Numbered from the stretch's first letter, positions 236-50,173 are shown. The stretch is DNA of 52,467 nt from Paraspadella gotoi (GCA_051294375.1 CM119263.1:31240358-31292824); one strand, 5' to 3'. Numbers and translations are program-made. Notes: generated from the sequence alone by a model not told the origin.

Positions 236-3200
236 CTATTATGGGTTAAAATAAGTAAAAAGATTCAAGTAAATGTGACTCATATTTTTTTATTAAACTC
301 ATTTCCACTTGTACGTTTCCACCGAAACTTTATATCAAGCATCGTTACACATTTTTCTACCCACACAAAAAAATTTGAACTCAATCTATCCATCCAATTA
401 TGATTAATTAGAGTACTTATTGGTTAAAATATGTAAAAATATTTTAGTAAATGCGACTTATGTTTTTTCCACTTAAACTCATTTCCACTCACACGATTCC
501 GTCGAAACTTTATATCCAGCTTTATCACACACTTTCCTACCCACACACAAAATTTCATTCCAATCCAACCAGCCAATCACGAGTTATTGGAGCTTTTTGC
601 TAAGGTGGGACGGATGGACGGATTGATAGATTGATTAATTATTGATTAATTAATTTGACTAATTGATTATATAATTGATTAATTATTTGATTTATTAATA
701 CAACCTGCATATACATTTAATATAAAAGGAAAAAGAATCATAATCAATTAGTGAAACAGGTTTTTTGTTTTTTTCCATTTAAACTCATTTCCACTCAAAA
801 GATTCCATCGAAACTTGGTTTCCTGTTCAATCACACACTTTTCTACTCGCATACAAAATTCCAGGTCAATCGATAATTAAGTGGTAATAAGCTAACTTGG
901 TCAACTTGCATAATTTAATCAACTTGCATAATTTGGTTAACTGACATAATTTGGTCTACTGACATAATTTGGTCAACTGACATAATTTGATCAATTAAGA
1001 TAATTTGGTCAACCGGCATAATTTGGTCAACTGGCATAATTTTTTCAACTGGTGTCTAATTTGGTCAACTGGCATAATTTGGTCAACAGGCAAAATTTGG
1101 TCAACAGGCAAAATTTGGTCAACTTGCAGAACTTTATCAACCTGCAGAATTTGGTCAACTGGCATATTTGGTCAACTTTAAAATATTTGGTCAACTGGCA
1201 TATTTTTGTCAATTGGCATAATTTTGGTAAATCAATCAATCAATCAATCAATCAATTAATCAGAGAGAGATAGAGAGAGAGAAACTTTAAAAAATTCAAA
1301 TAAATGTGTCTTTGGTTTTTTAATTTGAACTCTTTTCCACTCCTACGATTCCATCAAAAAATTTATATCTATGCAATAATATACAGACAGAACTAAACAA
1401 TCAAATTCCATACCATACACAAGATTATTTGTAGGCAGTATCTGCTTCTTTCAAGGGGATCTTATTAATATGTGGCCATTTTTTTTAGATAAAAATAATA
1501 ATTATGAGTAAATTCTAAGTAAAAATACTTCGAAAGTAAATATACTTTTTTTTTTCCATTTTAACTCATTTCATCGGCACAGTATTCTTATCGAAATTTT
1601 ATATATCCAGCTCAATCACATTCAGCTGTTTCCTACCATCACTACAAATTTCAAGTCAACTTCCTAATCGCACTCATGAGCAATGCGTTCAAATTAGTGA
1701 AATATATTTCTTTATATATTATATATATAATATATTTTTAAACCAATTTCACTCGCACGATTCCTCGAAACTCATATCCATCTCAATCAAACAAGTTTCC
1801 TACCCACACACAAAATTTCATACCAATCCATCCATCCAAACAACGAGTAATTGGAGTTTTTTGCTAAGGTGGGATGGAGGACAGACGGACGGACGGAGGA
1901 CATCGTTTTTTTTTGCATAATTAATCATAATTCGATTGTTCTGACATGATATAAGTGTGTGCCCGACAATATTGAGGGCGGCGGACCGACAAAGTGAATT
2001 ATAGAGTCAGGATCTGCTGATAAGCTGATAAGACTAAAAACGAAATAAAAACCGATACAAAATGATACACGAATGCGATGCCTAATTTTACGAGTTCAAT
2101 CCTATTTCAATTTTTTTTAATTAAAAAAAAAAGAAAGAAATCAAAAGGTAGCAGCAGAAGCAGCAGGAGAAAAGAGAGAAAGAGAGCCTTGCAGAGCCAG
2201 CTGCAGACTCTTTTTTCCCTCATGAATTAGTGACTAGGGAAAGAAAAAGGGAGAGAGACATATAATTAAGAGAAAAGAGAGAGAGAAAGAAATATAAAAA
2301 TAAAAAAGAGAAAATTTGTTTGTTTGATAAAACGTAAACAAAACATATTTAATCACTGTCCTGACCCAATTTAAGCACATCGATGATTGAGAAGCTGTAA
2401 ATATTAAATTTTCAGCTTCCANNNNNNNNNNNNNNNNNNNNNNNNNTTTAGATGAAATTTTGTGAGCGGGTAGGAAAGTGTGTGAATTTTTGACAGTTAT
2501 TAAATATGTTTTATATTTAATAACTGTCCTAACCCAATTTTAAGGACATCGATGATGATAAGTTGAATATAAATTTAAAATTAATTATTACATATTAAAA
2601 TTAATTAATTAATTAATTATCGTAGGCAGATCCGACATTGTTTGCTCAAACTTATTTTTTTCTCAGAAGCTGCGTCTGCTGATTAGTTTATTTTTTAACA
2701 ATGAAAAAAGTTTTTGTTTTTTTTCCTTTTTATTTCAGAAACTGTAACTTTAATTTCCCTCGGTACTTTATTATTTTTTTTAATTGACAATCGCAAAATA
2801 GAATTTTTCTTTGTTTATAAATTAATTTCCTTTTTTCAAATTTTTTTTTTTTAGTATCAAAATTTGTCGTCAATCCAGATTTTTCTTATGCGATTGCGAC
2901 GATCCTTATGCTTTTAATATTTAAAAAAAAATAAGATTATTCGTTTTTATAATCATAATTAACATTTGTTGTCAACAGAATGTGGACTCTGAATTCGAGC
3001 GTAATCTCCAACAGGCGCTGCTTCTTAGTAAACTTGAAGCGGAACAAGCGCGAACATTAATGGTGGGTTTATATTCTATACCATGATAGAAAAAAAATTG
3101 TCGCGGTTACTTTCCAGCTATTTTTCGGCATTTTAATGTGAGAATCGAAAAATAATATCGAGAAACTTTGACCTTTTGTGATTCATATAAGCTGTGTCTC

Positions 3201-9753: not shown

Positions 9754-11600
9754 ATGCAAACAAATACTGGATTTGGTGGGAGACGAGAAGGAGCGAGCTA
9801 TCAGACGGTTCCATCACCAACGATGTCTCTTGTTTTGCCAGTGAGGACGACAAGGGCACAAGGCATCACCCACATTGTGTTGGGCGTCATGATGGTTGGC
9901 TTTCAGATTGCGGCCATCATCGTCCTCGACAATCAAAACCACATTGAGCACAATCACTCGGACTCTGTTCTTGAGGTTGGCTCCGCCATCTGGTGCGGCC
10001 TCTTGGTCATCGGGTGTGGCATCATTGGATGCTGCGCCGCCGCTTATAAAACTAACAACACTGTGAGCATTTTCATATTATTTGTACGAATTTAAAAAAA
10101 TACAGCTTCTCTTATTTTGATGCTAGAGCGGGTTCAATATAGTATTCCTTAATCTAATACCTGAGGGAGTGGTCCTTTCAGACAATTGAAACATTCTTTG
10201 AAATATTATGCCACTTCATTGAAATGCCAGATACTCTGGGAGTAAATAAACGAGTCTTGATTGAAAGCTTGCAGGGTCCTGCTACGTTATTATCTTTTCA
10301 GGACTTAAACCACTTAAGCCTGTCCAATAAGGCGTAGTGAAAGTTACATACGAAAATTCTAAAAGTCAATTATGAACAAAATACCATCAGTGAACATTAA
10401 TTTGTAAAAAAAATTAATTTTATGTTTTTTAATTTTCGCAGTAGGCTATATTTATATATAGTACTATCCTTATAAAATCGAAAAATTTTAAAATAGGTTT
10501 TCTTAATTTTGAATGCAGATTTGAATTCCTCGTCAAAAGTTGATAAAAGAAAATATAAATCATTTTTAAAAATTCTTTCATTAAGTGGGTTAAAAATTAA
10601 AAAGACTATATTTAATATATAAAAAATTAATTTTCAGCGTATTTCTTTTTATCAACTTTTTATGACGAATCCAAATCTGCAAAAAAATCTTAAAAAAACT
10701 GTTTTGAAATTTTAACATTTATTGGTTTAGTACTAGAATAAATAATTAAATATGGCCTACTGCGTAAATTGTAAAATTTATTATAAATATTTTTATTATA
10801 TGAATGTCTATTAATATAATGTTGTTCGTTCCTCACTTTTAGAATTTTAATTAAAGTTAAATTTAGAAATTTTACTACGCCTTACTGTCCAATGTTTATA
10901 GTCAAGGCTCAGATATCTTATTTATTAAATGATTGGATCATTTTTATATTGGTTATACTAATATGATACTATAATTTTCATGCAGCAGCATTTACATACG
11001 GTATCTTTATAGTATAAAGATCCCGTATGTAAATGCTGCTGCCTGAAAAGAAAGAAAAAAGATTCGTAATTGCAGGTGATTGGGTTTTTGATTTTCAACA
11101 TATTTTCACTGATTTTATCGACGACCGTGTTGGGAATGATGGGTGGGGATTTGTCGCAACGCGATGTGATCTATTGCGATCATCGATGGATCAACGACAA
11201 ATACGAGGCTTATAACTGTTCTCCCTCTTACACGCCTTTGATTGCCATGACCTCCGTTCTCTTATTCGCCGCCTTGGTTGTCTTTTCTATCTCCATCTGG
11301 AGTATCGTCTCTTCATCCATTGCTATTCACAAGAGCAACGCTTGCTGTTGTCGTGGCCGTTGTTGTGTCAAGCAAGAGCCTCCCGTTTATGTGTACGGTC
11401 CTCAGCATCGGACGGTGAGTGACGTCTCGCGACTGGAGACGCATGAAAACGCGATGTCGACGCCTTCGATGGGGGAGGTCACGGAACGGGCTTCATTGGC
11501 TCAAGGATATGTTGCCCCACCGCCTTATGCCCCAGCGATGCCTTTACCGAAAGCTCTCGGTCGAGAACGAGCTAATCCTCCTTATCAACAATTGTACTAG
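9754..11600 (+). CDS. MS4A/CD20-like four-TM protein
   Basis: Exons 9754-10062 and 11076-11600 (GT-AG, phase 0); four hydrophobic segments, GSAIWCG motif, Cys-rich juxtamembrane CCC..CC, C-terminal PPPY. Confidence 0.75.
10150..10960 (+). repeat. Interspersed family C element split by a hAT MITE
   Basis: Homologous to ~28090-28260 and, in reverse, to ~15810-16030, ~36660-36830 and ~50235-50345 (aagcctccatcactcttacaagataatg core). Confidence 0.7.
10328..10884. mobile_element. hAT-type MITE (family B)
   Basis: TIRs TAAGGCGTAGTGAAA / TTTTACTACGCCTTA; 8-bp TSD CTGTCCAA at 10320-10327 and 10885-10892; YARNG terminus typical of hAT. Confidence 0.88.
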
Positions 11601-12311: not shown

Positions 12312-15300
12312 ATGAAGTTCTCCGTCGGGATTCGCCTCTTTTCATGCGCAGCTCCTTTGCTGCTCCGCTGCGTCACGACCCCGCGCCCGCTGCTTCGACG
12401 GACTCCTCTTCCGTCGTTCTTTCACTCCGCCTCCGCGAGACATCTATCGTTAACGGACTCATCTTTGACCGACCAATTGCTGACTTATCACGACGACGAC
12501 GAAGATGACGACGTCATCGCTACCGAGGTTTCCATGGATTGCAAAATCACGTTTCAGGCTCGATCCATCGACGAGTTGTTGGATAGGATGCGGAATCTCG
12601 ACCTGCTGTTGCCGCCGCGAGACTTGAAAATTCTCTTCCGATCGAATCAGCGACTGGCGACCAGTCTTATGCCCAGACCCAAAGTACATTGTCCTTTTAA
12701 TTCCGTTGTTTTATTTTTTTTTTTTTATCTCGCCAGACGGCGTTATGGCGTGATAATCGTTTAGAATTGCTTCTTTGTGCCGTCGTTGACATGGTTGTCA
12801 CGCTTTTTATCGTTGATCTTGTAACGCTTTTGTACATAAGTGGCGTCGTCGTCGTTGTCGTCGTCATCGTTATCGGCGTTCCAAATTATAGATCGCCTTT
12901 TTGATGATTAAATTTGGATGTTTGAAGCTGAAAATTTATATACAGCTTCTCATCATCGATGTCTCTTTTCCCCAGTCTCTGATTCATCGGAAAAAACCGA
13001 GTCTGCAGCTGGCTCTGCAGGGGCTTTTCTTTTTCTTTCTTTTCTCCTGCTGCTTCTGCTTTTTTATTTTTTATTTTTGTCTCTTCTCTCTTTTCTTTTT
13101 TAATTATATGTAGCTCTCTCTCTCTCTCTTTTCCCCAGTTGCTGATTCCTTGGGCTCTGCAGGGGCTTTTTGTTTTTCTCTTTTCTCCTGCTGCTTCTGC
13201 TGCTGCCTTTTGATTTCTTTCTTTTTTTCTGGCTGCTTCTGCTGATTTGTCCGAAAACGATTTGGTTAAAAAATTCACCAAATATTTTTGTTTGCAATTT
13301 AAAGAAAATTCTAAATATCAATCAGAATAATATTTTTTTAAATAAATATTTACTTTATTATTTTATTTTACTTTACTTCTCTTTACTTCCCTTAGTCAGT
13401 CTCATTCAAGTTTCACTTTGTCTTTTGTCTGGGAATGCTGACAGTGTTTAGAGAAGTCGCATTCGATCAAACTGCTCGCTTATGCGGGCTAAAAGTAAAA
13501 CAAAAGTTCCTTCAATAATATCTCTCCAGACTTATTTTTCTTATTTTTTATTTTCCTTTCTATTCTTTCTTTCCTTTCTAATTTTTCTTTCCTTTATATT
13601 CTTTCCTTTATATTCTTTCCTTTATATTCTTTCTTTCTTGCTTTTCTATCCTTTTTTCCTTTTTTCCTTTCTATCCTTTTTTCCTTTCTATTCTTTCTTT
13701 CCTTTCTATTCTTTCTTTCCTTTTTATTCTTTCTTTCCTTTCTATTCTTTCTTTCCTTTTTATTCTTTCTTTCCTTTCTATTCTTTCTTTATATTTATTC
13801 TTTTCTTCTTTTTCTTTCTGTTTATAAATTAATTTTCTTTTCTCAAATTTGAATTTTTTTAGTATTATGGTGGACTAAGATCCACCAACCATTCATCAGC
13901 GGCCATTGGTGCCGGAGGCAAGTCAATCGCGTCCCAACCCAAAGGTCCGGGGTTCTAGCCCGGTGGTCGCCTAGCAGTTAAGAGGGACGGGGCGCTTAAC
14001 CCGCCTGTAACATGGTGTTACAGCCTGATCCGAAGCTCAGGGACTGCTTACATTGAACGGTTCTGTCACTAACACATAACAAATATCACTGTCTCTTCAT
14101 TGGTGAGCCCGACTTCCGAACACAACAGCAACAACACTTTCAGGCGACCTGCCTCAACCTGGCGATGCACTTTCCGCCATCAACACATCAGGCGACATGC
14201 CTTAACTTGGTGACAAACTTTCCACCAACAACAATAATTCACTGAAGAGACACAACAGACTTCTCCCTACCGGAGGGGGGGATGTATGGTGGACTAAAAT
14301 CCACCAACCATTCATCAGCGGCCATTGGTGCCGGAGGCAAGTCAATCGCCTCCCAACCCAAAGGTCCGGGGTTCTAGCCCGGTGGTCGCCTAGCAGTTAA
14401 GAGGGACAGGACGCTTAACTCGCCTGTAACTCGGTGTTACAGCCTGATCCGAAGCTCAGGGACTGCTTATATTGAACGGTTCTGTCACTAACACATAACA
14501 AATATCACTGTCTCTTCAGTATCAAAATTTGTCGTCAAGATTTTTCTTAAGCGATTGCTACGATCCTTATGCTTTTAAGATTTTTTTACATTTTTTTAGA
14601 TTATTACGGTTTATATAAAATTGGTACAACCAATATAAAAAATATCCATTTATTTAACAAATAAGCGGGTAACTTTACTATTCGACATCCACAACCAACT
14701 TTAGTTACTACTGGTCGGTACTTTGTTAATCCATTTAATTTTGTTTTCCCTCGAGCTTCGAATCTCAGTTTACGCAATAATATGAATTTTTTTGTTTAGT
14801 AATACTAATTTTATAATAAATAATAATTGTTTTAAATTTATTTTAATTGCTATTTTTATATTTGAGATAGAAAATGAATTGCTTGTTTACGTACAAGTGT
14901 TATAAAGAAACATGAAATTGTGAATTGTCAAAGCACTGATGAAGGCTTGAATGAAAGCCGAAACTTGTCTGTACCATTAAAATAAAAAACCGTTGATGTA
15001 ATAAGACTTCGTCTTGAATCTCAAAAAAGTTTAATCACAAACTCTTTTTTAAAAATTCTTTCATTAAGTTGATCAAATATAAAAAAACTATATTTTAAGC
15101 TGAAAATAAAAATTTTATGTATTAAATATGGTTTTTTTAAATTTTTAACCCACTTAATGAAAAAGTTTTTAAAAATGATTTATATTTTCTTTCATCAACT
15201 TTTGACGAGGAATTAAAATATGAAATCAAAATTCAGAAAAACCTATTTTGAAATTTTACGATTTTATAAGGATAGTTCTATAAATAAATATAGACTTTTA

Positions 15301-18300
15301 TAGTTTACTACAAAAATTGAAGAACATAAAATTAATTTTTTTTATAAATTAATGTTTACTGATGGTATGTTGTTCATAATTGACATTTAGAATTTTTGTA
15401 TGTAACTTTCACTACGCTCTATTGGTTAGGGCTGGTTTTACAGGGCGCCACACCCGCAGCGGTGTCACCTCGTGGCGACAGCGAGACAGCATGTTCATAT
15501 AGTCCAGAGCTTTGGATCTGGCAGTAGACCCATGCCTACAGGCGGGTTACCCGGTCCATCCCACTTTCAACATGACAACCTCAGGGCTCGAACCAGGGAC
15601 GCACATTGGGATGGTGCATTAGTCCACTGAGCTACTGAGGCGCTGCAAAAGAAACAGCTTTAATCCATCTGTGGTGATAGGACCACCAGAAGGGGTTGTT
15701 AGGGTTAAGGTGGTTTATTTTTGCGTAGCGAGATTTTTATATGTCGCTTATAAGAAGCAAAAAAAAAATAACCGACCGAAAAATCTTGGTGGGCGAATGT
15801 AAAAAGAGCCAAATAAGCTATCTTGCCCCTGGACAGGCTTTGGTGGTTCAAAGCCTCCATCACTCTTACAAGATAATGATATAGCAGGTCTCTGCAAGCT
15901 TTCAATCAAGACTCTTTCACAGTCGAGTTTATTCATTCCCAGAGAACTTGGCTTCCCTATCAATGAAGTGGTATAATGTTTCAATTGTATTAAAAGACCA
16001 TTCCCTTAAGTATCAGATCGGGGAATACTATATTGTATTTCGCACTAACATCAAAATACAAGCTGAATTTTTTGAAATCTTTTTTATTAAAAACAGTATT
16101 AACATAATGAAATTGGTACAACCAATAATTATAAAAATTATATAAAGATTATGACGGTTTATAATTTTTTTTATGTAAAAACTACTACAAATTATGATTG
16201 ATTTTTATAAAAGTGTACGATCATTATTTAGTACTGGGTTCCGCGTACAAACGTTGCATTTTTAGACCGCTAAACATAATATTTTTGCCTTTCACGCATT
16301 AAACAACTCTCGATAATTTTTACCAAAAATCTCAAGTAAAGTCACGACACATTTAGGAAAAAAACGACTCTTTCCACTATTGTTCAGTTGTTACTTAAAA
16401 TGTTAATTAACTTTGTACCACAACACAAATTAGGCCGAACGAAGGATTGGTTAGAAACATCTCCACCCATTTCTAATGATAAAATAGTACCATTTTGGCA
16501 ACTTTTAGCCAAAAAAATTATGTCCATTTTTACTTACGACTTCTGATTTGAAAGCCAAGGAAAGTTGAGAAAAATTTTTTACTTTGGAAATCCGTTCTTT
16601 CTTATCTTTTTTACCTCTGGGTAAATTTATTAGCTTAAATCATTTATAGTTTGCCTATGAATTAATTTTAAAGTTAACAAGTCAAAAAGTTGGAGTTTCA
16701 GTCTTTATCATAATTTGTTAAACAAAAATAAAGCAAATTGGTTAAAATTAACAGAAAATATAGCCTATTGAATAAGCTTTTAACACCTATAAAATTATCA
16801 AAAAAACTTTTTTGGTTTAGCCACAAATAATTTTTAAAGACGTCTTTTAATTTGTGACTTTTTGTGACTTGCATTTATTTTTGATAAAGAGAATATTTTC
16901 AACTCATTTATTAGTTTCAAAAGATGAGGTACATACTGACCTTGATTAAAAAAAACCGCATCCTTTTAACCCAATGGAAAGCGTCAGGACCCTTTTTTTC
17001 TCAGAATCGACAGATTTTGCGGAAAAATTTTCCGCAAAATCTGTCGATTTATTAAATTTGCTAGGCAACCAAAATTGAAAAAAAAAATCATGCGCTACCG
17101 TTCATTTTCTTTCTTATAATGCATTTTAAATATTTTATTTGATTTGGCTCGATGTAAACGTAGTGAGAGGAAATAGGAAAGGGAAAACAAGAAAAGGAGA
17201 AGGGGAGAGAATGAAAGAGAGGGTGAAAGGCAAAAAAACGAAGGAAAATGGGGAAAAAATAGTGAAACAATTGTAAGGTAAGAAAAGAGGGGAAAAATGG
17301 AAAGAAAAAGATGGGAAAAATGGAAAGAAAAAGAGGGGGAAAAAAGGGAAAGAATGAAGATGAGAAAAAAAGGTGAGGAAAGTGCATGAGTGACAGAAAA
17401 TGGTAGGGGCCAAAAAAATGGTAAGTGACAGTGTGAGAAGTAAGGGAGGAAAGAGGAAGAGAAAAATATAAAGTAAGAGAAGAAAAGAGGTGAAGAACAA
17501 TAATCAGGAAAAGCGTATGAAGGAAAAAAAATTGTATCAGATAATTTGGCGTCTTACCTAAAATCTTTTGTGTAAGTAAAAGACATGAGGATTCTTATAA
17601 GGAATTCGATCTTTAAAAATCATCTGTACCATAAAAATTCAAGCATACTTTTTTCTAAAATTAAGCAGTTAATGAGATTAGATTGACAATCATTGAAGAA
17701 ATCATGTCTTACCGTATTTTTAACTCATAGAAATTTACATGGGAAGTTCTAAGTGATAAGAAGGAGATAACTTGAGACTACCGTTTTTTTAAATGAAGAA
17801 AGCTTCGTACTAACCAATGAGATCAAAAAATATGGTAATTATTGAAGTTCAGATTTCGTTGTTTAAAAGATACTGATTGTATGCGAAACCACTGTTATTA
17901 GTTAGCCTCAGCTGAAAATAAATCTATCTCCAAGACGCCGAGTTGATAACGTAATTGTTGATGTAATCGCCAATTGATGAGAATGTGTGGTTGATGTGGT
18001 TGTTAAGAACTTAGTAATGATTGATTTTTATAAAAGTCTACGATCATAATAAGTGAAAAATTTAGATATGGGTTCTCATCTTTAAGATCTTTGAAATTGT
18101 TACGTTTCATATTGATTGGAATATTTTTGTTTGAATTTCCTTCTCATTATGATTTACTGCAATATACAAATTAGAATATAGTACTTACTGCAATATGAAA
18201 ATTAATATATAATATACTATATTCTAATTTGCATATTGCAGTAAGTCAAAATATTAAAAAAATTTAAAAAAAAAATACTTGAATCCATATGAAACATGAC

Positions 18301-21300
18301 AGTTTAAAAGATCATGATGATGAGAAGCTATATCTTAATAATCAATTATTATTGCGTCAATAATCAATTACTACATCAATAATTCATTATCACATTAATC
18401 ATTCATTTTTTTTCCGGATTTTTTTATTAATTTTCTTTGATAGTAACGTCTGGCGAGATAACTTTACTTTTAAGATTTTTTTGTAAGATTTAAAATGAAA
18501 TACTCTTCCCCCCTCTTTCCCACCAAAGTCCCGATGTTTCTTGCTGGAGATCGAGCATCTTTCGCTGATTTGCCTGAAGGACCGCTGCATTATTCTCAAT
18601 CCCCGCGACGAGATTGTCAAGAGTTTTGTGGAAGATTTATGCTACTATCGATTGGGCAACAAGGATTCGACCGAGGAAAGGTAAATATAGTAAAGCTTGT
18701 AATATGGTTGTTACTAAGTCTACTTGAGTACTTAGTCCTTAAGGCGCCCCAGTGATAAAAATGATATCATAAACATAAGGGTCTATCATCAAAGGAATTT
18801 GAATGGTGATAATTGTTAATTTTTCTTTGCACGGGAAAGTGGAGAAAAATATTTTCATCTCCTAGTTGCATTGCGAACAAGGATGAGAAAATTTTTAATT
18901 GATCTCCCCGAGATACTGATACAGTCCATCCTCTTACTTTCTCTTAGGAAATCATTTTTTCATAAATTATAAGTGATATTATGGTAACAGCCGGGTTGCC
19001 TGTGATGACCATTGGGATGGGGCATCTTCACTGTTAGCTTTGGGGCTTCCGATCCTTAGTGACGTTTGGGATGTTGCCTTCCCCTCTGAGCCAATGATAT
19101 TGGCTGAACGATGGTGGTCGTGAGGCCTCAATATTATCTCCTTCATATGCACAAAGAAAAGTATAAAAAAAAACCAAATCCTGTGGCCTCATGTCCACCA
19201 TCGTTCAGCCAAATCCATTGGCTCAGAGAGGGGAACACACCATCCCAGGCATAGTGTTCCATCCACAGTCCTAACGACTTCCCTCTGCGTTGGCAAAGCT
19301 AGACCGTCCTAGGGTAACCGCGCCAGTGACTGGAGGCGTCACTGAGGGTCGAAAGCCCCAAAGCCAACAGTGAGATGCCCCATCCCAATGGGCATCACAG
19401 GCAACCCGGCTGTTGCCATAATCCCTATTTTAACTTGCAGTCCAAAGCCCAAGACTAAGGGTTCCAACAAACCGACGGCGCGAGACTATCACAAGATGTT
19501 AACATGCAGCATCCAAAAGATGGACTTTGAACACGTTGTGCTCGAACAGGCATTGGCCAACATCACCGCCAGATACACTAGACACGTGGAACTGACGAAA
19601 CCAACTCTGGAGCTGCTTCTTTATCAAATTGAACTCGATCCCGCTGTCTCCATGCTGCGCCGACTGTTGGCCTTCAGAAAGAGTTTGATTGAGTTTGAAA
19701 CGGGTGTCCATCAGGTAGAATGGTCAAGATTGGAATTCCTGTCTTAGTAGTTATTAAGGCGTCGTTAGTTGCAGATCAAAAATTCGAATAGTTCATGAAC
19801 ACTGAAGTCTTGTACTAACGAACAATGATATCTTTGATAGACGGGGGAGGCGGATCCTCGTATCCGCTGACGATATATAAAAAATTTTATCGTCGCAATC
19901 GCTAAGCACTTGCGATGATATTGTATTGCTTTTGCCCATAAGTGGCGTCGTCGTCGTCGTCGTCGGCGTTCCAAATTATAGATCGCCTTTTTTATGATTA
20001 AATTTGGGTGTATGAAGCTGAAAATTTATATACAGCTTCTCATCATCGATGTGCTTAAAATTGAGTCTCGACAGTTATTAAATATGTTTTGTTTACGTTT
20101 TATCAAAACAAACAAATTTTCCTTTTTATTTTCATATTTGTTTCTCTCTCTCTTTTCTCTTTTAATTACATGTCTCTCTCCCTCTCTCTTTTCCCTAGTC
20201 ACTGATTCATAATCATAGGGAAAAAAACGAGCCTGCAGCTGGCTCTGCAGGGGCTTGTTCTTTTTCTCGCTTTTCTCCTGCTGCTTCTGCTGCTGCCTTT
20301 TGAGTCTGCAGCTGGCTCTGCAGTGGCTCTTTCTTTTTCTCTCTTTTGAATTAGGATTGAACTCGTAAAATTAGGCATCGCATTCGTGCATGTTATCATT
20401 TTGCTATTTTTCAGAAACTGTAAGTTTAATTTTTTTCCGTACTTTATTATATTTTCTTTATTAACAATCGCAAAATAGAATTTTTCTTTGTTTATAATTT
20501 AATTTTCTTTTTTTTAGTATCAAAATTTGTCGTCAATCCAGATTTTTCTTATGCTATTGCGACGATCCTTATGCTTTTAAGATTTTTTTAAAATTTCTTA
20601 ATTTTCGCATACGCCCATAGTTATACATAGTATCTACCATAGAAAATGTCAAAATTTAAAAATAGTTTTTTTGTTTTTGTTTTAAAAGCAGATTCGAATT
20701 TCTCATAAAAGTTGAAAAAAGAAAATGTCTTAATAAAAAATTTTTTCATTAAGTTAGCTAAAAATTAAAAAAATATATATATATACTAAAATTAAATTAG
20801 AGGTTAACTATAACAGTTTTTTAGGATTTTTACCCACTTAATGAAATAATTTTTTAAAAAGAGTTTTCTTTTTATCAACTTTTCGTGAGGAATTCGAATC
20901 CGCTTTCAAAATTAAGAAAAATCTATTTTAAAATTTTAACATTTTCTATGGGCGTATACGAAAATTGAGAAATTTTTAAAAAAAATTATATATCAATGTT
21001 TACAGATTCTACTTGATTTTAATAATTTTGCTACGCTTTAGTAGTTATTGATGGTTAAATCAAATAATTTCTTTGTTTAAGTTGTGCCACGTCTTGGAGA
21101 ATCTCCTCAACAGCGACGAGGATATGGCGGGATTTTACCTGACTTCGCCCGTCGAAAATATCGCCGACCACAACGAAGTGGAGCTTTTAGTTGAAGCTTA
21201 TAGTCATGACCTCGGTGATATCGTCAGTGAAATCAAGACGATGAAGGTCGGTGACATGGCTTATCTTCCTGGGATTTCAGGTTTCGTAAAGTACTTGATT

Positions 21301-31639: not shown

Positions 31640-32050
31640 TTTTTTTTTTTTTTTTTTTTTCTGAAAAGAAAACAGAGCAAACAAATAATTGCGGGAATGG
31701 TTGCAAAAATATCTTATGTCCACAATAAACGAGAACAAATAAGGGGAAGATAAAAATGAAAAAGAAGAAGAGATCGGGAGACAAAGTCAAGCAACTCCGT
31801 CCACATGAGACGGCAACTCAATCACGGGACTTCGGGAAGCGAGCAGGTCCCCGTTCTCGCGCTGAAGGCAGACAGAAAGTCTCTCAAAAAAGTGCTTAGA
31901 CGTTTTGCCGATATCTAAGCCTGCATTCGTTGCTTGGAGTTTGGCGAAATCTTTTAAGTTTGAGAAAGCATCCAGATCCATGCCCCAAAGGTAGTAACAA
32001 CCAGAGGGATGAAGCCAACGTCCGGCCGGCAGTTTGCCTTCGTACTTAGC
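31640..32050 (-). mobile_element. 5'-truncated non-LTR retrotransposon with restriction-like endonuclease C-terminus (CRE/NeSL-like), frameshifted
   Basis: Minus-strand AKYEGKLP/DVGFIPLVVTTFGAW/DLDAFSNLKDFA...FFERLSVCLQRENG...stop, 3' UTR, poly(A) (T run 31639-31660); candidate TSD TTTAGAATT at 31632-31640 and 32072-32080. Confidence 0.72.
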
Positions 32051-32154
32051 ATGTTTAGAATGTTTAGCATGTTTAGAATTGGTAGTTGCTTTTAATAATG
32101 ATTATAATTTAGTCGTATTTCAAATTCTGGCTGCTGCAGAATTTTAATTTAGCG

Positions 32155-35270: not shown

Positions 35271-38200
35271 ATGATTCTTAAACGCGACAAGAAAGACGAA
35301 GAGGATCTCGTCAACCCTTTCCTCAATCTGGACAAGGCCACGGTCCTGCAGGAGGCGAGGACCTTCAACGAGACGCCAATCAACAATCGGAAATGCACGA
35401 CCATATTGACCAAGATCCTCTTCATCCTCAATCAAGGGGAGCAGCTCGGCACCACCGAGGCGACGGAGGCCTTCTTCGCCATGACCAAGCTGTTTCAGAG
35501 CAAGGACCTCACCGTCCGCCGCCTCTGCTATCTCACCATCAAAGAGATGGCCGACATTTCCGAGGACGTCATCATCGTCACGTCCTCGTTGACCAAGGAC
35601 ATGACGGGCAAGGACGACCTCTTCCGCGGCCCGGCCATCCGCGCCCTCTGCAAGATCACCGACGCCTCCATGATCCACGCCATTGAGCGCTACATGAAGC
35701 AGGCGATCGTGGATCGAGTCAACGCCGTCGCCAGCGCCGCTCTCGTCTCTTCGCTCAAGATGATGAGTTCGTCGCCGGATGTAGTGAAGCGTTGGGTCAA
35801 CGAGGCGCAGGAGGCCGTCAACAGCGATAACGTCATGGTGCAGTATCACGCTTTGGGTGAGTTACTTGGGTGATATCGCGTCTTCGGTGTGAGATTCTAT
35901 CAAGTCTTCTTGGTCATTTCTTTGCAATGTTTCAAAAATGTAATTAAAGATATTGGGCGACGAATATTCAATCACAAATATTTTCAGAAAACAACTCAAA
36001 ACGAGATGACAAATCGGAGAGATTATCTAAAAATGATTCTTATCACGAATCATAATTAAACTAATTTAATTTTAGGTTAATTTTGGTTTAATTAAAATAA
36101 GATGATTTAGACCATTTACAAATAATAAAAAAAATATTTTGTCCTTTTACAACCAAATTCACTTATGATGTTAGATTCTAATTAAATTAATTTTCCTCAT
36201 GCATGGAAGCATTTTAATATTTAACGATATATAAGAAATGATTAAAAAAATTTTAAAGAAATTTAAATTTTTAAAAATGGATTCTGATAAATTATTAACA
36301 AGTTAGATAAAGGTTAGTACTACAAATCATCATCATCTTTCATTAGATTTTATAGTTTTTATTATTTTTATAGATAAATCATTAAAATTTCCAAAAGTTC
36401 CATAATAACCTTCATCTAACTTTTCAAGCTCTATCAGAATCCGTTTAAAAAAATTTACATTAATTAAAAAAAAATTTTGACATTTTATAGTATTTGTTTA
36501 ATATAAAATAGCTTTCATGCTTTTAACTATAAGATAAATCTTGAATTTTTTAAAATTTTTACCAACTTTAATAAACACATTAACAAAATTTATACTGGAC
36601 TTCTGTTAGTTTGTAACCTGTTCCGCCTTAGTGTACAATAATGCAACTTTTTATGAAATTGGTACAACCAATATAAAAATTATCCATTCATTTAATAAAT
36701 AAGCTATCTTGCTCCTGACTTTAGACGGGCCTCGGTGGTTTAAGGCCTCCATCACTCTTACAAGATATAGACATAGACTCTCTCAAAGTCTCGTTTATTC
36801 ACTCCCAGAGTTCCTGGCTTACACGAGTCAGTATTTTGATGATCTTTAATTTAAAAACTTTTCCTTTCCCCCCCCCCCAATTCTCCAAGGCCTCCTGTAC
36901 CACATCCGTCGCAACGACCGCCTGGCCGTCTCCAAACTCGTCGCCAAATTCACCAAATCGAGTCTTCGGTCTCCTTACGCCGTCTGCCTCCTCATCCGCA
37001 TCGCTTGCAAGTTGATCGAGGGCGATCCCGATGGAAAGGCTTCGCAGGTCCGCCTTCCTAATATTTATTATTATTATTATTTATTGATTAAAAATTTTTT
37101 TTCTTTCGCTTTCAATCGCTTTATTTACCATTTGCAGGAATACTATTCCTTCATCGAGAGTTGCCTCCGCCACAAGAGCGACATGGTCATCTACGAAGCC
37201 GCCCACGCCATCGTCAACATGAAGGACACTTCGCCCAAAGACCTCGCGCCGGCCGTCTCTGTGCTGCAGCTCTTCCTCAGCTCGCCGAAGCCGACACTCC
37301 GCTTCGCCGCCGTACGGACGCTCAACAAGGTGGCCATGCGTCACCCGGCCGCCGTCACCGCCTGCAATCTCGATCTGGAGAATCTGATCACCGACGTCAA
37401 TCGGTGAGGGATGATGTGTCAGGGATAGTGAAATGTTTGTGTGAAAAGTTTTTTCGAAATCTGTGCTCAATTTAGAATTTTTGTTTGTAAGAAAATTTAG
37501 CTTAATTTTACTTTCGCCGACCGCGGTTTTGGCGCCCTTTGAAAAATTACTTAAAAATAGTGATTTTTTTAAAAAAATATATAAAAAAAATTTACCCAAT
37601 TACCCTAACCCTAAACCCTCTTAACCCTAATCACCCCTAACCCTAAACCACCTCTAAACCACCTTTAACCTTAATCTCTCCCTAACCCCGGTCGGCGAAA
37701 GTAAAAGTAACTCGAAAAGGGCTTTATAATTCTTAGTCCGTTGCCTAGTTGCATACGTTTTTATCAGTAATAAGACTGTTTTTTTGATGATGCATGTTTT
37801 GTGGCTGAGGTAAAGAAAGATGCAAGATGGATGTTTCAGTAAATTTTTAATTGATGCAAATCATATATTTGCCCGCGGTTAAGTATTTATGTAGGATAAT
37901 GAGGTTGAGTGTGTTCAGGACATTCGTCATTGCAAGCATCGCTGAGCTGCAAATGAGAAGAATCGTTAATAACTAACAATTTGGAAATGAATATTTTTGT
38001 TTTATTTTATTTTTGTTGACATTTCCTCTTTTTCCCTTGAAAGTTCGATCGCGACGCTTGCGATTACGACTCTCCTCAAAACGGGAAGCGAATCTTCGGT
38101 GGATCGACTCATGAAGCAAATATCTTCCTTCATGAGCGAAATCTCTGACGAGTTCAAGATCGTCGTCGTCCACGCCATCGCCTCGCTCTGCTCCAAATTC

Positions 38201-47500: not shown

Positions 47501-50173
47501 CCAGCAGGTTTGGCCTATTTTCGTTTTTTCTCGAAAATCCAATGTTTTATTTCAATCGTGAAAATTCAGCCGATACCTCGGACGATTCTAAACCGGCCCA
47601 TCCTGATCGACCCACTGCTTTGCAATTGCAAGTGGCCAAAGTGGTTGTGAGCAACACGCGCTCGGAGCCCGGGATGGGCGTGGCCGAATTGCGCGCGAGC
47701 TGGCGTCATGTCTTGACGCGCGGGTCGATGTTCGCGGGCGACGACTTCCCGCGCGCAGATCACGACCTGCAGGATCTGCCCTCCTGTTGGTCCGAGTTTC
47801 TCGCTGTCGCTAATTTGCTCAGACTCAACATCGTTCCGTCCACAGAAGATGGAAACGGTAATGAGGAAGGGAAGGTAGGATGGAATGAAAGAGGGAAGGA
47901 AAGAAGGAAGGAAGAAAGGAAGGAAAGAGGGCGAGAAGGAAGGAAGGAGGGAGGGCGAGAAGGAAGGAAGAAAAGAAAGAGAGGAAGGAGTGAGGAAAGA
48001 AAGGCAGGCGGGCAGGCAGGAGGGAGAGGACTTAACTCTTGTAAGGGGAAACGACAAAAGTCGACACTAAAGCGTACCAAAAATATTAAAAACAAGTAGA
48101 CTCAAAATTCGAATAGTAGATCAGGCTTGTAAATAAAAAAAAAAATTTCAATTTTCGCATAAGCCCATATTTATACATAGTACTTGCCATACAAAATGTC
48201 AAAATTTTAAAACGGTTTTTTCTTATTTTTAAAAGCAGATTCGAATTCCTCAGGAAAGTTGATAAAAGGAAATATAACTCTTTTTAGAAAATTATTTCAT
48301 TAAGTGGATCAAAATCCTAAAAAACGTTTATTATTAACCTTGTAATGATTTTCTTTCTTTTCGTTAATTTAGAAATTTTTAGGAATATCAGTTTTTGTGT
48401 TTTAACGAATTTTTAAATTTTTAAACTATGATTAAAAATTCGTTAAAACACAAAAACTGTTATTCCTAAAAATATTATTAACCTATATTTAAATTTTAGT
48501 ATAAAAAAGTTTTTTAAATTTTTAGCAAACTTTATAAAAAAAAAATATAAGTCAATCAAAAATTCTTTCATTAACTTTTCATGAGAAATTCAAATCTGCT
48601 TTCAAAACTAAGAAACATTATTTTAAAATTTTAACATTTTCTATGGTTAGTACTATGTATAAATATAGGTGTATGCGAAAATTGAGAAACTATAAAAAAT
48701 TTTTTTATATATCAATGTTCTTTAGTCCAAGACTGTTCCTGATTAACTATTCGAATTTTGATCTGCAACTTTCACTACGCCTAAGTCGACACATATAGTT
48801 GTCGTAGAATAAATACATTTGTCGTAGAATTTAGAATTTATGTACGCATTAATTCCACCAAACTAACTTTTTTTATTCGGGGTTTCAAACTGGCTCTATT
48901 TTTTGATTAGTGTTAGTGTTTATTTATTATTATTTATAAATAATAAATTTCAAATTAGACGAGGTCCTTTCTTCCTCCAGCGCCTGACGCCGGCCTCGAA
49001 ACGCTGCGCACGAATTCGCTCAAGCAACTGGCCGACGAAGACATTTGGTGCGTTTCCCTCAACCAAGTCTGGGCGGATTTCACTGGGATAAAAAGGTGAG
49101 ATTTTAAGAGGAATTAACTAAGAAACTCGTCGTCAGTCAAACTCGAATAATTGCGACAATCCTCAGTTGCCGCGGCGGCCGCCTGCCTTTCCTCGATGCC
49201 TTTTCCTCAACTCTCTGGCTGTGCTCGCCGCGGCCGAACCTCTTCACCGCCGGCGAGACTCTCTTTCCTCCAGAAATTCCCTCCGCCACGCCGCCCGCCC
49301 ACGACCGCCTCCTCCCGAACGGGTTTACGGACGATGTGGACGCCGCGCCGCTGGCGCATCCCGACGCCACCACGCCCGACGTTGCCGCCATTTTCGTCTG
49401 CGACGAGCGCCTCTCAGTTCAGTTGGATCATTTTCAGTTCCTCTTTCTCGTTCGACTCGCCGACGCCGCCGCCGACGCGCAGAAGCAGGTGGAGAGTGAC
49501 GTGGAGCGGATCACGGGTGAGTCATGCTCGGGGGAAGGTATTGGGGAAAGTAAAACAGTTGGCTCATCGAAAAACGACTTACTGCTCACTTTGAGTCACC
49601 CACTTTGAACCAACGAAATAATATTACTCACGATTTATCATTAAAAACTAGTTTTGCCTTTCAACAAAAAAATTGTTAAGGATTTACCCCTAAAAAAGTA
49701 ATAAATTTTGCAAATAAAATGTAACTCATAAAAGATGTACGCTTGACAATAAAATGATCCACGACTCATTAAAAAACTAAAAAAATTATCCGGGTTGACA
49801 TACATTTAATGGGAAAACGACTCGCATCTGACTAAGATGCAGAAAACCAGAAAATCTGACTCAAACTCTTTTTCTTTCTTCTTCTTCTCCTCCTCCTCCT
49901 CCTCTCCATTTCTCACCCACAAAGGTCATTCGCCTCACGAAGATGCGAAGACCCTCTCCTTGGTTTCGCTCCTCCCTCCCGTCGACGTCTTCTTTGTCCA
50001 TCCGCCCGTCGTCGTCAACGGCGGCATCGACGCCGACATGACGCCGCTTCCGCCGCCGGCGCCCGGCGCCAATCGGTCTCGCGCCGCCACGGATGTCGCC
50101 ACGCCGGATCTTGTCAAGACGCCGGACGCGATGAGTTCCGAAGTCGAAGGCGCCACCAACTTGGGATTTAAGG
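44550..50173 (+). CDS. BLTP3: Bridge-like lipid transfer protein family member 3 (UHRF1BP1/UHRF1BP1L), partial; continues beyond the traced exons
   Basis: Chorein-N start MASLIKNQILKHLAKFTKNLSPDKI; ELPLWL, IQWTKLKSEPI, DYYPYHLAG, HLEFSEYYFPEG, HVDVRFEAIMPKVVVP; exons traced to the donor at 50173. Confidence 0.9.
48068..48784. mobile_element. hAT-type MITE (family B)
   Basis: Ends TAAAGCGTACC / TTCACTACGCCTAA; 8-bp TSD GTCGACAC at 48060-48067 and 48785-48792; long internal inverted arms. Confidence 0.87.

Follow-up and report, generated by a model that had tools for sequence, protein, structure and literature searches.

A short tRNA-headed LTR element of Paraspadella gotoi with a predicted twister ribozyme in each LTR

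The window analysed here is a stretch of 52,467 nucleotides from Paraspadella gotoi (GCA_051294375.1 CM119263.1:31240358-31292824), with sulfotransferase, CD20-like, MRS2-like, COPG, SPC25 and BLTP3 as neighbours of the element described below. In a COPG tree made by a quick method from 38 of 120 hits, the host stood on a long branch with no named relatives. It holds an exact direct repeat of 240 bp (1-240 and 2883-3122), which is either a recent duplication or an assembly artefact. A 104-aa frame at 31787-32101 on the minus strand, which had no Pfam match, is presumably similar to the end of a non-LTR retroelement protein. The window also contains a short non-coding LTR element (family 1) and, about 1 kb from it, a solo LTR of a diverged family (family 2), found by BLAST of the family 1 element against the window. 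Their features are as follows.

13866-14518, plus strand: non-coding LTR element of family 1, 653 bp, with a 4-bp target site duplication (TSD)
13862..13865, plus strand: left TSD, GTAT, from the sequence and from empty host-repeat sites
14519..14522, plus strand: right TSD, GTAT, from the sequence
13866..14099, plus strand: 5′ LTR of family 1, 234 bp, first letters TA, last letters CA
14285..14518, plus strand: 3′ LTR of family 1, 234 bp
13868..13887, plus strand: terminal hairpin at the LTR start (family 2 has one too)
13899..13970, plus strand: tRNA-like head of the 5′ LTR, A-box-like at 13907-13918 and B-box-like at 13951-13960, one mismatch each
14318..14389, plus strand: tRNA-like head of the 3′ LTR, from sequence and folding
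13973..14048, plus strand: P5-permuted twister fold of the 5′ LTR, element order after Table 1 of PMC8501958 and PMC5408937
13973-13979/14042-14048, plus strand: P5 of that fold
G13986, then A13987, plus strand: its general-base G and the following A
13988-13990/14030-14032, plus strand: its T1
13991-13996, plus strand: its P1 linker, 6 nt, self-complementary
U13997^A13998, plus strand: its predicted cut
14003-14004/14035-14036, plus strand: its T2
14005-14023, plus strand: its P3
14024-14028/14037-14041, plus strand: its P4
14392..14467, plus strand: 3′ LTR twister fold, with a cut predicted at 14416^14417
14101..14113, plus strand: primer binding site (PBS) of tRNA-Trp type, 12/13 letters
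14130..14237, plus strand: internal duplicated unit of ~53 nt, each copy with two predicted hairpins
14243..14252, plus strand: block of 10 nt, the complement of the LTR end (14090-14099), pairing probability 0.93 predicted in a circle
14272..14282, plus strand: polypurine tract (PPT), from the sequence
15430..15690, minus strand: solo LTR of family 2
15573..15646, minus strand: tRNA-like head of family 2, A box 15634-15624, B box 15594-15585
15495..15574, minus strand: twister fold of family 2, G15560/A15559, T1 at 15558-15556
15555-15550, minus strand: linker of family 2, predicted cut 15549^15548

The two family 1 LTRs, which an earlier note made from the sequence alone had put at about 235 bp, differed at 8 positions over 234 bp, were spaced 419 bp apart and enclosed an internal part of 185 bp. 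The PPT named in that note is present, and the lack of an ORF was confirmed, the longest ATG-started frame being 37 aa. The PBS, likened there to that of tRNA-Trp, agreed at 12/13 letters with the tRNA-Trp PBS printed in Fig. S2 of Kojima 2024 (PMC10886601; Gypsy-32_NVi and Helenus-2_SyJa). The proposed GTAT duplication is real, since the host repeat around the element is uninterrupted at 2854-2857 and 20517-20520 and carries GTAT only once at each of these two empty sites. In contigs from public DNA runs of the same organism, 108 and 116 departed at the LTR start, and 68 and 78 at the LTR end, into unrelated and mutually disagreeing flanks, so that the ends of family 1 are fixed and its insertion sites many. 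Family 1 is abundant in the host. A Penelope-type pseudo-LTR was rejected because of the PBS, the PPT, the 4-bp TSD and the fixed ends, and the copy at 13866-14518 is almost certainly a TRIM.

The integrated left end is TA in family 1 (13866-13867) and TC in family 2, and the PPT is separated by TG from the 3′ LTR (14283-14286). The left attachment end of family 1 is non-canonical. In the internal copies of ~53 nt both hairpins stay paired despite substitutions, and this duplication is a possible packaging signal.

The head of each LTR had been described as a 72-nt tRNA-shaped segment, and its tRNA-type origin was upheld. The family 1 head folded as a long closing stem with no proper cloverleaf, and a functional tRNA gene was rejected on that ground. 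The Rfam search of the window called no tRNA at this head, nor did ARAGORN at its default or down to -ps80, a call appearing only at -ps70. The single mismatches of the A and B boxes each fall at a conserved position of the usual box consensus. The family 2 head has an A box near consensus and a consensus B box, and 45/76 of its columns (59%) are identical to the family 1 head. This homologous head settles the tRNA-type origin of the family 1 head, which is tRNA-like, not a tRNA; from its boxes, the putative Pol III promoter of family 1 is degenerate.

This anatomy is close to that of Helenus (TRIMp3), tRNA-headed TRIMs that were reported from six animal phyla, have a 4-bp TSD and a gypsy-like PBS, and are considered polyphyletic by Kojima (Kojima 2024, PMC10886601). 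Shared with them are a length below 1 kb, the lack of coding sequence, two LTRs with a tRNA-like segment, a PBS, a PPT and the 4-bp TSD of the animal elements (PMC10886601). The Trp PBS of family 1 is that of Helenus-2_SyJa and Helenus-2_SyUm, and LTRs starting with TA occur in some wasp Helenus (PMC10886601). Pol III transcription is as putative for Helenus as for family 1 (PMC10886601). However, most of the published animal Helenus LTRs compared stop a short way past the B box, frequently with a T-run (PMC10886601), whereas in family 1 the twister fold stands there. Family 1 thus differs in having a twister after the head and no run of four T, and by eye it showed no sequence likeness to the families listed in the available part of that data set.

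A P5-type twister fold directly after each head had been claimed, and element order, catalytic letters, pairing and a structural descriptor all agreed with it. The general-base G, the GA, the UAA, T2 (GC/GC) and L4 were kept in all three copies, that is in both family 1 LTRs and in family 2. The cuts placed at 13997/8 and 14416/7 and the 419-nt monomer between them are likewise supported by the sequence, the interval between the two predicted U^A sites (13997/13998 and 14416/14417) being 419 nt. The P1 stem is absent and a 6-nt linker stands in its place. P2 has only 2 adjoining bp, with a third pair beyond a bulge. Its 5′ strand of 3 nt is one base shorter than the 4 nt of eight of eight phage P5 twisters, a set whose search pattern itself required a 4-nt P2 strand, and of seven Schistosoma examples in PMC8501958. 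P1 has been reported as dispensable, and an imperfect P1 or P2 was tolerated in the natural twisters tested (PMC5408937, PMC11662667). In a high-throughput assay of natural P1-type twisters, P1 and P2 defects were well tolerated and pseudoknot mismatches were partly harmful (PMC11662667). Folding without pseudoknots gave the catalytic P2 register a probability of 0.0 and preferred to pair the T1 strand with the P2/T2 strand, while in a modelled primary transcript P3, P4 and P5 of the 5′ LTR formed at 0.91-0.96.

The fold of the 3′ LTR deviates by a T1 mismatch (14408, mid-T1), a linker change (14411) and a P2 wobble (14420). Among the variants listed, which are 40 of 78, these deviations are minority or copy-specific letters in the DNA runs. 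Judging from these letters, the 3′ ribozyme of the 13866-14518 copy is slightly decayed, and defects like its mid-T1 mismatch reduced cleavage in PMC11662667.

The Rfam twister models (P5 and P1), which the earlier note had named as a check, gave no match to the window even at E<=10. Across the whole window nothing reached gathering level, and the four weak matches at E<=10 were unrelated ones, with no twister-P5, twister-P1 or hammerhead among them. A hammerhead in the LTRs was rejected, given the lack of its core motif and of an Rfam hammerhead match. For the P5 model, RF02684, the LTR folds fell below the gathering threshold with no match at E<=10. They share with RF02684 the order P2′-GA-T1′-P1-UAA-P2-GC-P4-L4, the catalytic G and A and both pseudoknots. 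However, RF02684 and the eight phage members have a P1 hairpin of 17-25 nt, no P3 and a 4-nt P2 strand, whereas the LTR twisters have a 6-nt P1 linker, a P3, a closed P5 and a 3-nt P2 strand. The long P1 hairpin and the lack of P3 in the model are the reason why it misses them.

We built a descriptor from published twister elements and ran it on the whole window. With a perfect T1 it matched twice only, once in the 5′ LTR and once in family 2; permitting one T1 mismatch added the 3′ LTR, so that all three window matches were LTR copies. The chance expectation was 0.02-0.04 matches per window (0.06-0.37 with the T1 mismatch) and 1-2e-4 per LTR. A looser version, whose matches among 20,000 shuffles numbered 6 and 7 for the two LTRs, had given four AT-rich false window matches beside two real ones, and the descriptor was tightened for this reason. 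The tightened descriptor recovered seven of the eight Rfam-positive phage P5 twisters and none of 13 other loci. The Rfam P5 model recognised eight of 17 phage-contig loci (L005, L008, L009, L012 and L014-L017, above threshold), and L006, L007 and L011 were P1-type twisters below the Rfam threshold. A pattern scan of viral contigs for relatives of the LTR twisters returned none. Four further loci from the pattern scan, three metagenomic (two of them near-identical, and all three without direct repeats) and one bacterial, were rejected as chance matches, none passing the pairing descriptor.

Family 2 is abundant in the host, with 763 matching contigs in one public DNA run. No full-length family 2 element was seen, and the window holds the solo LTR. 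Other copies extend ~6 nt beyond its end and share the terminal hexamer of family 1, and the window copy was accordingly read as a solo LTR without its last ~6 bases. It sits inside another dispersed repeat (15380-15430 and 15690-15760) with CTAACC-like motifs, pieces similar to which lie near 10324, at 37470-37674 and near 48750. This repeat is reminiscent of Helentron/HINE ends.

The earlier note had called for a covariation check, and comparison of the two families revealed compensatory changes in T1, P4 and P5, within the span of two lineages. Over the three copies, 64 of 66 cells of the pairing table paired, for 22 scored pairs and with the inner P3 and P5 pairs left out owing to gap placement; the three rows represent two lineages only. 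In 5/22 pairs both partners differed between the families, namely in one T1 pair, one P4 pair and three P5 pairs, in a structure drawn from the same sequences on which it was scored. Only 3/500 shuffles reached the three-copy result, and the slid controls gave 23-44%. P5 was fully rewritten between the families and still paired. Identity between families 1 and 2 was 46/61 in the twister core, 45/76 in the head, 28/68 in the tail and 5/24 in the spacer. Eight of the 20 family 2 variants listed lay in the ribozyme and none in its core. At three places in P5 and P3 the common letter of the runs makes a Watson-Crick pair, in contrast to a mismatch or wobble in the window copy; the five remaining ribozyme variants are minor, lie in P3 or its loop and may come from one subfamily. 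A twister-derived fold under selection is very probably what these LTRs hold, and cleavage by young members of the family is, from their sequence, a likely prediction.

This conservation bears on the possibility that a SINE-like or Penelope-type tRNA head with its twister was captured for the promoter, the ribozyme being weak or irrelevant to the TRIM. SINE capture has been proposed by Kojima for Helenus (PMC10886601), Schistosoma SINEs with a tRNA promoter and a hammerhead exist, and a ribozyme is absent from most Helenus in the part of the data set available. The P3 and flanking motifs also resemble RTE-type twisters (PMC8501958). Between the two families, however, which have diverged elsewhere, conservation is highest in the twister core, with compensatory changes and a P5 that was rewritten yet paired, and we consider such a passenger quite unlikely.

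We put at even odds the reading that the element is a tRNA-headed TRIM of Helenus design working as an LTR retrozyme through a double cut and a circle. Its transcript would probably start at the tRNA-like head, presumably under Pol III, and cleavage at the U^A common to both LTRs would release a 419-nt unit. This unit would be ligated into a circle, by RtcB in analogy with PMC7229834, where RtcB circularised animal retrozyme monomers in vitro. Reverse transcription would be primed by tRNA-Trp and carried out by a probable Ty3/gypsy helper (by analogy with PMC10886601 and PMC4918200). Double cleavage, the RtcB step and a gypsy helper are reasonable inferences.

With both cuts the RNA would lose the terminal redundancy on which reverse transcription depends, so that a circle is the expected template, and Cervera et al. 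have proposed a circular template for a monomer without such redundancy (PMC4918200). The 419-nt monomer contains exactly one LTR equivalent with the promoter head at its 3′ end, and the junction of a circle would be identical in sequence to the LTR. As a circle the monomer folded at -122.6 kcal/mol, better than all of 100 shuffles (-108.6 +/- 5.1; z -2.7), with P3, P4 and P5 re-formed across the junction and the LTR end paired with the 10-nt block before the PPT. There is no TTTT from the head until 14541, past the 3′ LTR, which is weak evidence as 24% of shuffles lacked TTTT too. Since it would hold a complete ribozyme, the circle could re-open; plant retrozyme circles, in contrast, keep their hammerhead blocked. 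For the circle route by itself, we see the chances as balanced.

An active ribozyme could also cut each transcript only once, leaving an RNA that keeps its terminal redundancy and is copied like that of any TRIM. In one form of this explanation the 3′ LTR ribozyme makes a 3′ end that replaces the T-run of Helenus and leaves an R region of ~99 nt; in another the 5′ LTR ribozyme trims read-through host transcripts, as for Perere-3. By the coordinates every singly cut product retains the R region, the ribozyme takes up the place of the T-runs of other Helenus (PMC10886601), and trimming of 5′ ends by a twister has been shown for Perere-3 (PMC8501958). The degenerate boxes of family 1 would fit a reliance on read-through transcription. 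However, the LTRs are identical at integration and modelling predicts no block at one site, P3 to P5 of the 5′ LTR forming as readily as given above, and circles do arise from plant elements whose two LTRs both carry a ribozyme (PMC4918200). Single cutting appears an unlikely alternative to the circle.

The linkers raise a further point. Those of the 5′ LTR and of family 2 differ at 4/6 positions and are both self-complementary, with predicted self-duplexes of -8.3 and -8.1 kcal/mol, while the 3′ LTR linker is weak (-2.1). Their central palindromes differ by a swapped pair. The chance that the four central bases form a palindrome is 1/16 in each, so that this is a lead only, and a 2-bp mini-hairpin would give the same swap. 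Because of this self-complementarity, the two LTRs may pair in order to cut. With the linkers of both LTRs paired, an ordinary P1-type twister with a P5 loop of ~350 nt would arise from the 3′ half of the 5′ LTR and the 5′ half of the 3′ LTR. A parallel to this idea are the hammerheads of amphibian retrozymes and of Penelope elements, which act as dimers (PMC7229834, PMC7761336, bioRxiv 10.64898/2026.07.22.740005). We hold dimer-dependent cleavage to be a tentative proposition, on the doubtful side.

Retroelement RNAs are packaged as dimers, and the fold might be a twister-derived signal that does not cut, its self-complementary linker being a kissing site for co-packaging with helper Gag. The stability of the two self-duplexes, the short P2 and the competing fold are in line with this. 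A pure dimer signal, however, would have no need of the catalytic G and A or of the two pseudoknots, all of which are kept, and this explanation strikes us as improbable.

Returning to the double cut, family 1 shares with plant LTR retrozymes a ribozyme fold in each LTR, a PBS, a PPT, a 4-bp TSD, the lack of an ORF and the occurrence of solo LTRs, as well as cleavage, predicted in family 1, into a monomer without an R region (PMC4918200). The plant elements have a type III hammerhead, 600-1000 nt and a Met PBS, whereas family 1 has a twister, 419 nt and a Trp PBS and belongs to an animal (PMC4918200). In the available text of PMC4918200 no tRNA-type promoter is described for the plant elements; their circles are shown there and are only predicted for family 1. 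LTR retrozymes are defined by a type III hammerhead in each LTR, in place of which we found a twister fold; a putative self-cleaving motif at the same position of both LTRs, with PBS, PPT and 4-bp TSD, is present at the level of sequence. Family 1 may therefore work like a retrozyme and is not a member as defined.

Likenesses to other ribozyme-bearing elements are partial. With the T-variant twisters of Schistosoma Perere-3 the LTR folds share a similar P3, L4 and L2 motifs, a poor P1 and the retroelement context, but the Perere-3 twister has P1-type order and is a single copy, sitting at the 5′ end of a non-LTR element that is autonomous (Liu et al. 2021, PMC8501958). Family 1 would have in common with animal non-LTR retrozymes and with the hammerheads of Penelope pseudo-LTRs small animal circles, RtcB ligation and weak-helix ribozymes acting as dimers. 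Unlike family 1, the animal non-LTR retrozymes carry type I hammerheads in tandem repeats and are stated to be without LTR, PBS or PPT (PMC7229834, PMC7761336, bioRxiv 10.64898/2026.07.22.740005).

The earlier note had regarded the combination of tRNA promoter and twister in an animal LTR element as new. A full-text literature search, covering few subscription journals, found no description of a twister in an LTR element or of a ribozyme in Helenus, whereas tRNA-headed animal TRIMs with 4-bp TSDs were already known as Helenus (PMC10886601). Ribozymes appear only in one reference title in the available text of PMC10886601, and a motif search of its Data S1, which motifs split across lines could escape, found no twister L4 in a twister context. 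By eye, directly after the head of Helenus-2_SyJa-LTR and Helenus-2_SyUm-LTR (Synergus), we noted a candidate core of a type III hammerhead, with stems and with complementarity between its loops. These are the two Helenus families with a Trp PBS (PMC10886601). From their sequences they are candidate animal LTR retrozymes within a published data set, their hammerhead being unmentioned in the accessible text of the paper. In the same Data S1, the fish LTR-11_DR group has a short internal part complementary to an LTR block, resembling the pairing of the LTR end with the block before the PPT, and long-range pairing between LTR and internal part may be general in TRIMp3.

In our best reading, what is new is only the ribozyme in a tRNA-headed TRIM, that is, Helenus anatomy and retrozyme logic with a different ribozyme. 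LTR retrozymes have been placed mainly in plants, with hammerheads (PMC4918200). A wider proposal, to which we give a low probability, is that animal LTR retrozymes have been overlooked as Pol III-headed, Trp-primed TRIMs with swappable ribozymes, a twister in this host and a hammerhead in Synergus wasps, and that the twister acts as a two-copy enzyme with a shared P1. Cutting would then occur only in the full two-LTR transcript, the ends would be kept together for ligation, and the circle with its one ribozyme would be guarded from re-opening. The element offers a natural test, 76 nt in length, of a twister acting as a dimer. Twister elements with a short P1 and a P3 may be undercounted, since current Rfam models miss them. 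If the retrozyme reading is true, twisters would have a second role in retroelements beyond the trimming of 5′ ends, and the circle-based route would extend to the LTR elements of animals, with the class of ribozyme being exchangeable.
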